Below are positions 3,320-59,792 of a stretch of DNA of 64,000 nucleotides, in pieces. Origin of the DNA: a virus (lineage: Duplodnaviria; Heunggongvirae; Uroviricota; Caudoviricetes); the IMG/VR virus record IMGVR_UViG_2029527006_000005; one strand, 5' to 3'. A program made the translations under genes and the position numbers. Within the stretch, counting starts at the first letter, position 1. Each line of letters begins with the position of its first letter. The notes under the pieces are model-generated. The model made no database searches and was not told the DNA's origin. It saw only the letters and a list, made by a program, of their open reading frames with translations.

Positions 3320-3407
3320 TGGTGGGAGAGGCAAGGACTCGAACCTTGCATTGTCACTAGGACTAAGACACTGGAGATGCCTATGTATACCTTTCCATCA
3401 CTCTCCC
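3320..3407 (-). tRNA. tRNA, class II length (88 nt), isotype undetermined
   Basis: reverse complement has acceptor GGGAGAG/CTCTCCC, T-arm CAAGG-TTCGAGT-CCTTG and encoded CCA; anticodon arm could not be folded by eye. Confidence 0.5.
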
Positions 3408-26200: not shown

Positions 26201-26282
26201 TGGTCCGGGCGGCAAGATTCGAACTCGCATACTCCAATTACTCGATTAACGACGGGTTAGAAGCCCGTTGAGATACGCCCGG
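26201..26282 (-). ncRNA. tRNA-like gene (aberrant; possibly Arg-UCU derived)
   Basis: acceptor CCGGGCG/CGCCCGG, T-arm GCGAG-TTCGAAT-CTTGC, CCA, hairpin ACGGG-CTTCTAA-CCCGT, but no recognisable D-arm; its 5' end coincides with the predicted TSS of promoter copy 5. Confidence 0.4.
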
Positions 26283-31494: not shown

Positions 31495-31528
31495 ACTTAA
31501 AATAAAAGCCCCCTCATTTGAGGGAGCT
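31495..31528 (-). terminator. rho-independent terminator
   Basis: hairpin AGCTCCCTCA-AAT-GAGGGGGCT followed by TTTTATTTT on the minus strand; directly after the SPFH gene stop. Confidence 0.6.
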
Positions 31529-31538
31529 TGTTTAGTTG

Positions 31539-32375
31539 TTACTGTCCTGCTGGAACATTAACAAATGGTACTGCTTGACTACCCATCATGGTTGGTAGTT
31601 TACCGTCCCATTTTTCGATAGCTTTTAGGTCTTTAACATCTGCGTTTTTACGTAGTGCATCACCTAGGATTTCAATACTTTTCGCTTCTGCTTCAGCTAG
31701 TAGTAGTTTAGCATCTGCTTCACCTTTTGCTTGTGAACGTGCCATATCTGCTTCAGCATTCTTCTGTAGTACTTCTTGTTGACGTTGTAGTGTCTTCTGG
31801 TTCGCAGTTACTTTTGCGTTAATGGAAGCATCAACTGATGGTGGATATGCTGGTTTACCCATCCAAGATAGACTTAGAATTTGAATACCTACTGGACCCA
31901 TTTCAGCTTGAATATCTGCTAGTGCATCGTCTAGTAGTTTAGCTTTGCCACCATCAATGAACTGATCAGTACTCATTTTACTACCAAGACGTGTTAGTGA
32001 GTCACTAATCTTCTGACGTAGGTCAGTATCAGTAATATCATCTACACCTTTACGGTAAGTCTGGAATACAGTTTTAACTTTGTTTGCATCCACTTTATAT
32101 GACACACCGATTTTATAACCGATTGTAGTACCATCACGCATCTGGAATACAAATTCTTCGTCGTAGGATTTCATTTGTTTGAACATTGGGAACACATAAA
32201 GATCAGTGTTAATACCAGTCCATACACGGCCTACGCCAACTACTTCACCCACACCCTTGTCATCGCCTAGTTTGTTAACTTTAATACCAACAAAACCCGG
32301 TTCAACACGATCACAGCCTGTTAGAGCTAGTGCACCAAAAACAAGACCAACTGCTAGAATAATTTTCTTGAACAT
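31539..32375 (-). CDS. SPFH/band-7 (prohibitin/HflK-like) lipoprotein
   Basis: lipobox LALTGC; SPFH-like core followed by an Ala/Glu/Lys/Gln-rich coiled coil (ADMARSQAKGEADAKLLLAEAEAKSIE). Confidence 0.75.
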   Translation of the reverse strand: MFKKIILAVGLVFGALALTGCDRVEPGFVGIKVNKLGDDKGVGEVVGVGRVWTGINTDLYVFPMFKQMKSYDEEFVFQMRDGTTIGYKIGVSYKVDANKVKTVFQTYRKGVDDITDTDLRQKISDSLTRLGSKMSTDQFIDGGKAKLLDDALADIQAEMGPVGIQILSLSWMGKPAYPPSVDASINAKVTANQKTLQRQQEVLQKNAEADMARSQAKGEADAKLLLAEAEAKSIEILGDALRKNADVKDLKAIEKWDGKLPTMMGSQAVPFVNVPAGQ

Positions 32376-32572
32376 TATTTGAATACCTTTTTGTAAATTA
32401 CATAGATTGATGGGATACTTAGTACAAAAATACCAAATCCAATCACGTTTAGAATAGTATCAGGTGCTGATACCAATTTGGGTACTTCTACAAACATTAC
32501 AAGGATTACGTAAAGAACGATTCCTAATCCTGTAAACCATTTCATCATCAAACTTGACATTTTTTTCTCCAA
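32375..32572 (-). CDS. small two-TM membrane protein, possible NfeD-like partner of the SPFH protein
   Basis: GIVLYVILVMFV and VIGFGIFVLSIPSIYVIY; start/stop overlaps the SPFH gene. Confidence 0.45.
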   Translation of the reverse strand: MEKKMSSLMMKWFTGLGIVLYVILVMFVEVPKLVSAPDTILNVIGFGIFVLSIPSIYVIYKKVFK

Positions 32573-32681
32573 AAGAAAGCCCGTTCATATTGTAACACAT
32601 GTTCGGGCAAAAGTCAATAACAAAATTAAAGGGAAATGTCGCTATCCAAAATGGAGAAAATGAAAAGCGACGGTGGATTAT

Positions 32682-32758
32682 TGGTGCTAACGGTAGGACT
32701 TGAACCCACAAAATGCCTCATTACAAGTGAGGTGCTGTACCAATTGAGCCACGTCAGC
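32682..32758 (-). tRNA. tRNA-Thr (anticodon UGU)
   Basis: acceptor GCTGACG/CGTTAGC, D-arm GCTCAATTGGTACAGC, anticodon stem CCTCA/TGAGG with loop CTTGTAA, T-arm GTGGG-TTCAAGT-CCTAC, CCA. Confidence 0.75.
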
Positions 32759-32810
32759 AAAAATGACAAAGAACGAGCGTTTCGGAGGTGCTTGTTGTTC
32801 CCTGTCATAC

Positions 32811-32847
32811 TTCTATTATATCACATTATCAGTGATTTGTCCCAAGT
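32811..32847 (-). promoter_or_regulatory. conserved sigma70-like promoter (copy 6)
   Basis: attatatcaca (32815-32825) ... tgtcccaag (32838-32846); 17-nt spacer. Confidence 0.6.
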
Positions 32848-32849
32848 TT

Positions 32850-33392
32850 TTATTCTTTTTCTTGGATTTCTTTAAGAATTCGATCTGCAAGTTCACGTAG
32901 CTTAGTATAAACATAAGCACCATCTTGCTTCTCGATTTTTAACTCATGGGTAGCTGCATAAAGCAACTCTGCCATAGTTAGGTCTTGGCGTAGCCAGTTA
33001 CCATTCTTGAAGATAGTTAGTACACAATAAGGTTGTGGAGAATCACCAGTTTGGTCACATACCAAAATGCTTTGTACTGGTTCATCATCATAAGTACACA
33101 ACTCTGCATTCACATCAGTCATGTACTGTCGAATATCCATATTAGCTTTAGTGTTGATAGCAAAGATTTTACCATCATCAGTACTGTTAATATTCAACTC
33201 AATATCATCACCTAGCTTACGTACTGCTAGGGTATATAGAAGTAGTTCATAGCCATCGTACTGATTTTCAGTACCGCTAGCATTCTTTACTTTAATTACA
33301 CAATTTTTACTACTAGTCTCAGTACTAAAACCTTCTTTATCAGATAAGAAGGTTTCAATTTGACCGATTAGTGCTTGTACTTCTTTAATCAT
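32850..33392 (-). CDS. hypothetical protein (180 aa)
   Basis: ORF track. Confidence 0.55.
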   Translation of the reverse strand: MIKEVQALIGQIETFLSDKEGFSTETSSKNCVIKVKNASGTENQYDGYELLLYTLAVRKLGDDIELNINSTDDGKIFAINTKANMDIRQYMTDVNAELCTYDDEPVQSILVCDQTGDSPQPYCVLTIFKNGNWLRQDLTMAELLYAATHELKIEKQDGAYVYTKLRELADRILKEIQEKE

Positions 33393-35271: not shown

Positions 35272-35362
<91 letters not shown>

Positions 35363-59755: not shown

Positions 59756-59792
59756 CAATATTATATCACATTTTTGCTTCTTTGTCTCAAAA
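59756..59792 (-). promoter_or_regulatory. conserved sigma70-like promoter (copy 9, -35 variant TTGAGACA)
   Basis: attatatcaca (59760-59770) ... tgtctcaa (59783-59790); 17-nt spacer; 30 nt upstream of the gp39 start. Confidence 0.55.

Follow-up and report, generated by a model that had tools for sequence, protein, structure and literature searches.

We examined a 64,000-nucleotide (nt) stretch of phage DNA (IMG/VR record IMGVR_UViG_2029527006_000005, Caudoviricetes; hereafter the window) and describe here a locus at which the gene for a small protein with two transmembrane (TM) segments overlaps the gene for a lipoprotein of the SPFH/Band-7 family. All genes of the window and all elements of the locus lie on the minus strand. 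An earlier note on this DNA had described the locus as a single operon made up of a repeated promoter, a tRNA-Thr, a two-TM open reading frame (ORF), an SPFH lipoprotein, and a terminator; every one of these elements can be located in the sequence (Table 1). Judged by homology, the two genes are a further member of a cassette that is annotated and widespread in phages (PHROG 200 plus PHROG 1130), and we hold the identity of the genes and the conservation of the cassette to be close to certain. The locus region is ~80% identical at the DNA level to Klebsiella phage fENko-Kae01 (360 kb) and equally to the Salmonella phages Munch, 7t3, SE_PL, and PHA46 (337–350 kb), and metagenomic contigs of 360–366 kb encode proteins 95–100% identical to those of the window. 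These matches identify the window as part of an uncultured member, of ~360 kb, of the Munch/fENko-Kae01 group of jumbo phages.

The lipoprotein gives a positive domain search, which the earlier note had proposed as a check on its assignment: it matches Pfam Band_7 (PF01145) over residues 23–205 at 83.8 bits, where the curated cut-off is 23.6 (E = 2e-23), and PHROG 200 ("lipoprotein") over residues 1–277 (E = 2e-95). The lipobox claimed for it is also present. The N terminus, MFKKIILAVGLVFGALALTGC, is a typical lipoprotein signal peptide that divides into MFKK-IILAVGLVFGALA-LTGC, with the lipobox L-T-G-C at residues 18–21 and Cys21 as the predicted site of lipidation. A lipobox with its cysteine is kept in 115 of the 120 closest database homologues; in these 115 the residue that follows the cysteine (position +2) is Asp in 111 and Glu in three. 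The C-terminal tail of the protein is conserved as well, with W256, G258, and P261 invariant.

An AlphaFold2 model built from 28 homologues (mean predicted local distance difference test [pLDDT] 69; predicted template modeling score [pTM] 0.46) predicts strands within residues 21–95, an alpha/beta SPFH core, and a single helix of ~65 residues (179–243). Comparison of the model with the PDB by Foldseek ranks HflC/HflK first (7vhq), prohibitin (8rrh) and erlin next, and then stomatin, flotillin, QmcA, and the major vault protein, with a probability of 1.0 throughout. At the level of sequence, a single-sequence phmmer search against PDB sequences found no match, and a profile was needed to reach the prohibitin-2 coiled coil (3e-4), HflK (1e-3), HflC, and QmcA. 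The NCBIfam equivalog models are missed by a wide margin (hflC, TIGR01932, 20.6 against 134.4 bits; hflK, TIGR01933, 14 against 159.4 bits). The protein is therefore a member of the SPFH family that is neither HflK nor HflC.

Because a signal peptide and a lipobox imply export and a lipid anchor, we predict that the SPFH domain faces the periplasm. Approximately four residues are predicted to separate the acylated cysteine from the first SPFH strand, a spacing that would lay the domain flat against the membrane that holds the anchor. The term "flotillin-like" used in the earlier note is not a good description of such a protein: The lipobox implies export, and in the fold comparison flotillin comes after HflK/C, prohibitin, erlin, and stomatin and its matches cover little of the target (TMt 0.26–0.29). 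Flotillin is located on the cytoplasmic face of the membrane, and stomatin and QmcA are likewise not extracytoplasmic.

The small protein was listed with a TTG start at 32572, giving the 65 amino acids (aa) reported previously. An ATG at 32560 gives 61 aa and is the likelier start: GGAG and six A residues stand before it, and 61 aa is also the called length of the orthologues in the relatives and of one database protein with 100% identity. The other part of the earlier description, two TM segments, stands: Hydropathy places hydrophobic segments at residues ~8–26 and ~35–56, separated by EVPKLVSAPDT, with KKVFK at the C-terminal end, a pattern consistent with an N-in/C-in hairpin whose short loop is in the periplasm. 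When the window is compared with its relatives, the length is fixed at 61 codons and dN/dS is ~0.35–0.41; the ORF therefore evolves as a protein. It matches PHROG 1130 ("membrane protein"; E = 2.8e-6, residues 9–65 of the 65-aa form), with no match at E ≤ 1 in Pfam or NCBIfam and none in the PADLOC models.

Searches by tblastn with the 61-aa protein were too insensitive, matching the five closest phages, and local hidden Markov models (HMMs) were used instead. Searching 1.84 billion representative proteins with a profile yielded 316 clusters of the family. The homologues of jumbo phages, of an N4-like Erwinia phage, and of E. coli prophages can be aligned over their full length and have in common the loop motif P-x-[LM]-[IV]-S-[AM]-[PK]-D-T; P27, S31, D34, and G41 are invariant among 22 homologues. 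In the best 150 of the 316 clusters the proteins are 36–91 aa long, save two (360 and 365 aa) that are fused to Band_7, and a third fusion (347 aa) occurs among the SPFH homologues. These three proteins (P0081, P0228, and P0303) read through from the small protein into the SPFH lipoprotein and are either genuine fusions or products of missed stop and start codons. In a genuine fusion the signal peptide of the lipoprotein would act as a third TM helix.

The arrangement of the two genes resembles, as the earlier note had it, that of the bacterial SPFH–NfeD operons. Homology to NfeD does not extend to the small protein, since 61 aa are too few for an OB-fold and an NfeD domain (PF01957) is absent from all five members of the small-protein family that were scanned against Pfam. 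With no NfeD-type protein (TM segments plus OB-fold) among the family clusters listed, the comparison is valid for gene arrangement only.

The start codon of the SPFH gene overlaps the stop codon of the small ORF in the sequence TAATG, with one base in common, which agrees with the translational coupling suggested before. By tblastn, 384 phage records of many different lineages contain a match to the SPFH protein. We looked at two sets of loci, nine from enterobacterial prophages that were retrieved through the small protein and 13 from phages that were picked by their SPFH match alone. The small gene lies immediately upstream of the SPFH gene, with a 4-nt overlap, in all nine prophage loci. 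In the phage set the partner is present in 11–12 of the 13 loci (by HMM or direct inspection). These include Schitoviridae that infect Erwinia, Shigella, Stenotrophomonas, and Alcaligenes, a Bruynoghevirus, a member of the Vequintavirinae, a P1-like phage, an Aeromonas phage, Burkholderia phi1026b, Stenotrophomonas DLP_6, and a crAss-like phage. Small-partner homologues with the loop motif are found upstream of the SPFH gene in the N4-like phages S6 and Moo19, in KB57, and in Pseudomonas phages, among others. Existing labels vary: In the Moo19 record the two genes are described as similar to coliphage N4 gp19 and gp20, "predicted HflC," and in an Aeromonas phage record the SPFH gene is a "putative FtsH membrane protease modulator."

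The jumbo-phage pair has 55%–72% amino acid identity to the versions in enterobacterial prophages, P1-like phages, and N4-like phages (64%–72% for the jumbo-phage SPFH protein), and the genes that neighbor it have no such relatives. The high identity of the pair amid unrelated neighbors indicates horizontal spread of the cassette. Its location differs among the carriers. In N4-like phages and Bruynoghevirus the pair follows a sigma70 promoter in the left part of the genome. In lambdoid prophages it belongs to the leftward early region, between the S24-type repressor and the integrase; a scan around the pair of a lambdoid prophage detected no promoter or terminator beyond chance expectation. 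A slot that varies within the P1 family, bounded by trnT and a tRNA with CAT anticodon, is occupied by plp-upl-tciABC in phage P1 (L029, 9349–11009) and by the SPFH pair in the P1-like phage Ro157c2YLVW (L021, 1680–3934); the pair also adjoins tRNA genes in the Stenotrophomonas phages Piffle and DLP_6. The idea that the pair is itself plp/upl of phage P1 was rejected: P1 plp has 125 aa and is on the opposite strand, and HMMs find neither family in that region of P1.

The orthologue of the SPFH protein in fENko-Kae01, ENKO_388, is flagged as identified with liquid chromatography–tandem mass spectrometry (LC-MS/MS). The measurements, made on ultrafiltered fENko-Kae01 lysate, detected 220 phage proteins, nonstructural ones among them (PMC11218385). 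Detection in such a lysate shows that the protein is made and does not imply that it belongs to the virion.

Table 1. Features of the SPFH locus, in order of transcription
Feature	Position in window	Strand	Basis
Phage-type promoter copy, P1	32815..32845	-	1 of 9 near-identical minus-strand copies
Leader hairpin followed by U5	32763..32808	-	-14.5 kcal/mol, z = -2.5
tRNA-Thr, anticodon UGU	32682..32758	-	ARAGORN; Rfam RF00005, 59.2 bits
Near-invariant block of ~74 nt	32562..32635	-	Alignment of window, Munch, and fENko-Kae01
Sigma70-type promoter, P2 (predicted)	32589..32617	-	Consensus scan, 10/12 matches plus extended -10
Imperfect inverted repeat around the -10	32579..32608	-	RNA fold, -13.8 kcal/mol, z = -3.45
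Small two-TM protein ORF, 61 aa	32375..32560	-	PHROG 1130, hydropathy, conservation
SPFH/Band-7 lipoprotein, 278 aa, 837-nt ORF	31539..32375	-	Pfam, PHROG 200, AlphaFold2 model
Intrinsic terminator after the pair	31497..31529	-	10-bp stem plus U-tract, -17.1 kcal/mol, z = -5.2

A feature of the locus that the earlier note does not mention is a second promoter, P2 (TTGACT-17-TGtTACAAT), situated between the tRNA and the small ORF and invariant in Munch and fENko-Kae01. It is part of a block of ~74 nt that is the same in the window, Munch, and fENko-Kae01 except for one added A in an A-run, and that spans an AT-rich tract, the -35 and extended -10 elements, an inverted repeat, the 5′ untranslated region, and the Shine-Dalgarno site. 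The coding DNA that flanks the block is 76%–80% identical among the three phages, and in the small ORF ~40% of synonymous sites differ between the window and its relatives. The block occurs once in the window and in five phage records, all from this group. On this comparison the constraint on the block is far beyond what a promoter alone needs. The inverted repeat, an imperfect 10-bp repeat of GCCCGAACAT and ATGAACGGGC, also in single copy in the window, brackets the -10 element of P2 and is followed by UUUCUUUU; together these could form a terminator of tRNA transcripts, an operator, or both.

At the other end of the pair, the strong terminator described in the earlier note is well supported. 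Six of its stem pairs are GC, the stem is followed by UUUUAUUUU, and, in addition to its fold energy and z-score, the structure recurs in both Munch and fENko-Kae01, where a compensatory change has replaced one C-G pair by T-A. The Munch record annotates a terminator at the corresponding site. The pair thus has a promoter and a terminator of its own, the mark of a moron-type unit, as far as sequence evidence goes.

The upstream promoter P1 is one of nine minus-strand copies of a motif, CTTGGGACAAA-N11-12-(A)TGTGATATAAT, which start at 59790, 39462, 35401, 32845, 26321, 12261, 10616, 10260, and 2780; the copy at 32845 is the sixth from the start of the window, in agreement with its earlier numbering as copy 6. 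The extended -10 element of the motif is invariant, and the -35 region is conserved but departs from the consensus. The P1 copy reads TTGGGACAAA ... TGTGATATAAT, and Munch and fENko-Kae01 both conserve it; an activator encoded by the phage might bind at the conserved TTGGGACAAA. Three copies (35401, 32845, and 26321) are directly 5′ of tRNAs, and the remaining copies precede protein genes. P1 is thus most likely the promoter of tRNA-Thr, itself confirmed by both ARAGORN and Rfam. Between the two is a leader hairpin for which the relatives build the same structure from other sequence (ATGATAAGGA...TCCTTATCAT), a case of covariation. Since the hairpin is downstream of the predicted transcription start, it could be an element for 5′ processing or stability, or a terminator of the upstream gene that overlaps the transcript from P1. 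In the Rfam scan of the locus the tRNA alone passes, and sub-threshold hits to a Phe leader and to caiA are chance matches.

We therefore do not retain the proposal of a single operon that includes the tRNA. P1-type copies precede tRNAs at three places, the pair has P2 with an overlapping hairpin and U-tract, and in Munch the tRNA-Thr differs in sequence and lies ~130 nt farther from the pair, with the promoter block of the pair unchanged. For these reasons the locus is best read as two adjacent units, a tRNA-Thr unit and then a self-contained two-gene unit that would use its own P2 and terminator, with read-through from the tRNA into the pair possible. We also considered whether tRNA-Thr and the pair form a shared cassette, as a P1-like phage likewise has a tRNA-Thr(UGU) upstream of the pair, and found this unsupported: The tRNA sequences are too divergent to establish common ancestry, and the Munch tRNA is different again.

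Three further tRNA candidates occur on the minus strand of the window. One, at 26204–26282 and directly behind the 26321 promoter copy, has 35.1 bits in Rfam and no ARAGORN call. Another, at 35272–35362, is in the ARAGORN list as tRNA-Ser, its anticodon, ACT, being an unusual one, and Rfam supports it as a tRNA (49 bits). The third, at 3320–3405, is an 86-nt tRNA-Gly(TCC) according to ARAGORN and is absent from the Rfam list at the gathering threshold. Upstream of the locus, a 180-aa protein (32850–33392, minus strand) belongs to PHROG 15745, and its fENko-Kae01 orthologue, ENKO_386, was seen by LC-MS/MS. The G+C content is 40% in the SPFH gene, 30%–35% in most neighboring genes, and 37% in the window as a whole, which is weakly consistent with acquisition of the gene from phages of higher G+C.

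Which membrane holds the lipoprotein depends on the sorting signal. In enterobacteria, Asp at +2 retains a lipoprotein in the inner membrane, the strong form of the signal being one without adjacent basic residues (PMC6469965). The near-invariant acidic residue at +2 argues for a selected sorting signal, and we tentatively favor an inner-membrane location, although Arg follows the Asp here; among more distant homologues, KB57 has Glu at +2 and the Burkholderia version has Asp-Asn.

Cryo-electron microscopy has shown that the C-terminal helices of SPFH proteins build rings or domes that enclose a patch of membrane and that partners such as NfeD can be integral components, the QmcA–YbbJ assembly containing 26 heterodimers. 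With this in mind we infer for the phage pair lipidation, an inner-membrane location, an oligomeric cage, a contact between the partners, an early timing, and a physiological role, as follows. The pair would be transcribed early from the host-type promoter P2. The SPFH protein would be exported, lipid-modified at Cys21, and held close to the inner membrane, and its subunits would join through their long C-terminal helices into a periplasmic ring or dome, like those of HflK/C, prohibitin, and erlin. The small partner may be made in approximately equal amounts, given the translational coupling. The SPFH protein has no TM helix, its coupled partner has two, and the loop of the partner is conserved; for these reasons we suggest that the small protein provides the membrane-spanning helices that the SPFH protein lacks and that its loop docks on the SPFH base. 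Early in infection the assembly may then fence off a patch of inner membrane or isolate a client protein. Taken as a whole, this structural and architectural model, an early and apparently nonessential module that sets a periplasm-facing SPFH assembly on the inner membrane, has in our estimate slightly better than even chances of being right.

Several observations weigh against the model. The confidence of the AlphaFold2 model is moderate. The residue next to Asp +2 is Arg (C-D-R-V), so that the context is not one of strong Lol avoidance, and more distant homologues have other residues at +2: Tyr in N4-like phages and Ser-Lys in phages of Pseudomonas, Stenotrophomonas, and Alcaligenes. An HflK/C-like lipoprotein of a Pasteurella prophage, PM0222, has been reported in outer-membrane vesicles (PMC9872710). 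These points leave the outer membrane some probability as the site of the protein. Identity to HflK/C is 15%–19%, with NCBIfam scores far below the cut-offs, and there is no specific tie to FtsH. Two of the 13 phage loci have no recognizable partner of this family: CcrRogue, which has a larger multi-TM protein instead, and an Erwinia Kolesnikvirus. The early timing of the promoter is read from sequence alone, and our literature search found no functional study of, or experiment on, the phage SPFH lipoprotein family.

As to what the assembly does, we rank the candidate roles in the order quality control of the FtsH type, exclusion or envelope protection, outer-membrane or virulence function, and lysis control. 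For the first, the client role would be quality control or turnover of inner-membrane proteins in the manner of FtsH and HflKC. HflK/C and prohibitin cooperate with AAA proteases, and in lambda the functions directed at FtsH are located in the early-left operon. Our guess, made with low confidence, is based on these two points, that the nearest analogues of the phage protein work with AAA proteases and that the lambdoid version of the cassette is in the early-left operon.

The same assembly could act instead in superinfection exclusion or envelope protection, a role that we consider unlikely. An early periplasmic assembly would block the entry of DNA from a secondary phage, or damage to the envelope, or it would stabilize the inner membrane during the long cycle of a jumbo phage. 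Analogues exist in Imm and Sp of T4 and Llp of T5, which are early small membrane proteins or lipoproteins, and the host-type promoter, the placement in early regions, and the predicted envelope location would all suit such a role. So would the distribution of the cassette among unrelated phages with common hosts (~70% amino acid identity between the jumbo-phage version and those of enterobacterial prophages, N4-like phages, and P1-like phages), which is typical of accessory moron genes. In Moo19 the pair adjoins a gene annotated as superinfection exclusion of the P22 gp17 type, but this is one phage and weak evidence. However, we know of no SPFH protein that excludes phage, SPFH cages enclose only small patches of membrane, and PADLOC defense models give no match. 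Moreover, the pair of lambdoid prophages shows no signals of its own beyond chance, which makes expression in the lysogen, as required for prophage-mediated exclusion, doubtful.

Very unlikely, in our view, is an outer-membrane or surface lipoprotein with a function in lysogenic conversion or virulence, in which case the small ORF would have an unrelated role. PM0222 offers a precedent, being prophage-encoded, HflK/C-like, found in vesicles, and an aid to virulence through TLR1/2 (PMC9872710), and the Arg at +3 weakens the retention signal of Asp +2. This explanation has to contend with the acidic residue at +2, near-invariant in enterobacterial homologues, and with the presence of the pair in strictly lytic phages, for which conversion would be pointless; further, only an SPFH base on the inner membrane would make sense of a conserved and coupled partner that sits in that membrane and exposes a short loop to the periplasm. 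Lysis control, with the small protein as a holin, pinholin, or antiholin and the SPFH protein as regulator of its triggering, is the least probable of all, for although size, two TM segments, and a basic C terminus recall class II holins, and stomatin-type SPFH proteins regulate channels, the small protein matches no holin family, the PHROG category is "moron/host takeover," the pair is never beside endolysin or spanin genes in the loci examined, and its placement in early regions argues weakly against a part in lysis timing.

Returning to the periplasm-facing assembly on the inner membrane, we suggest, speculatively, a more general form of it. The cassette may be a minimal SPFH system independent of NfeD, in which a lipid-anchored SPFH protein and a dedicated two-helix "fence" partner of ~60 aa form periplasm-facing cages at a 1:1 ratio. 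Its horizontal spread among jumbo, N4-like, P1-like, lambdoid, and crAss-like phages would then be due to the ability of the cages to capture or insulate, early in infection, a specific machine of the inner membrane, for example, FtsH or the DNA entry route of a rival.

The cassette as such was already known, as annotated and widespread in phages. SPFH ORFs were listed in the T4-like phages 44RR, Aeh1, and RB43 in 2006 (PMC1524935); a 2009 classification of SPFH proteins in prokaryotes makes no mention of phages or of lipoproteins; a 2020 study of RaK2-like and Eneladusvirus jumbo phages states that SPFH function in bacteriophages "is poorly understood" (PMC7760394); and a 2026 paper likewise calls the role of the phage gene unclear. 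New here are the definition of the partner family and its loop motif, the predicted periplasmic HflK/C-like topology, the separate invariant promoter, and the evidence for mobility of the cassette. For the window itself, the result is one more instance of the family together with a clean view of local transcription signals. SPFH cages are known from cryo-electron microscopy, yet for most members in bacteria it is unclear what they do. A compact and seemingly nonessential cassette, very common in phages that infect Gram-negative bacteria and with a partner far simpler than NfeD, could serve as a model for the nucleation of SPFH cages and could also show what phages gain by partitioning the inner membrane.

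Among known systems, the pairs of PHROG 200 and PHROG 1130 genes in other phages are the most direct counterparts, with the same two families in the same order, overlapping or adjacent genes, a lipobox, the SPFH core, the C-terminal helix, and the loop motif. The window pair is distinguished from them by its setting, a jumbo myophage, by its own invariant sigma70 promoter and terminator, and by the adjacent tRNA-Thr; in lambdoid prophages the pair is embedded in a leftward early operon. PM0222, compared here by its description, is likewise a prophage-encoded lipoprotein of SPFH type, but it is reported as a host-directed virulence factor in outer-membrane vesicles (PMC9872710). The SPFH–NfeD operons (QmcA–YbbJ, 8z5g; Pyrococcus PH1511/PH1510) resemble the phage pair in having a gene for a membrane partner beside the SPFH gene and in a probable 1:1 assembly, and differ in that the phage partner, at 61 aa, has neither an OB-fold nor a protease domain. 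QmcA is among the fold matches of the phage protein; however, its cages face the cytoplasm, whereas the phage SPFH protein is predicted to be exported. Prohibitin and erlin cages, from the organelles of eukaryotes, have the fold class and the noncytoplasmic orientation in common with the predicted phage assembly, and the coiled coil plus C-terminal segment aligns with residues 199–259 of prohibitin-2, but the kinship is distant and the anchor, the partners, and the cell context are different. E. coli HflK/HflC, the cage that modulates FtsH and the best match in fold, is also extracytoplasmic and has an anchor followed by the SPFH domain, a long coiled coil, and a C-terminal cap region; compared with it, the phage has one SPFH gene in place of two paralogues, and a lipid anchor in place of a TM helix.

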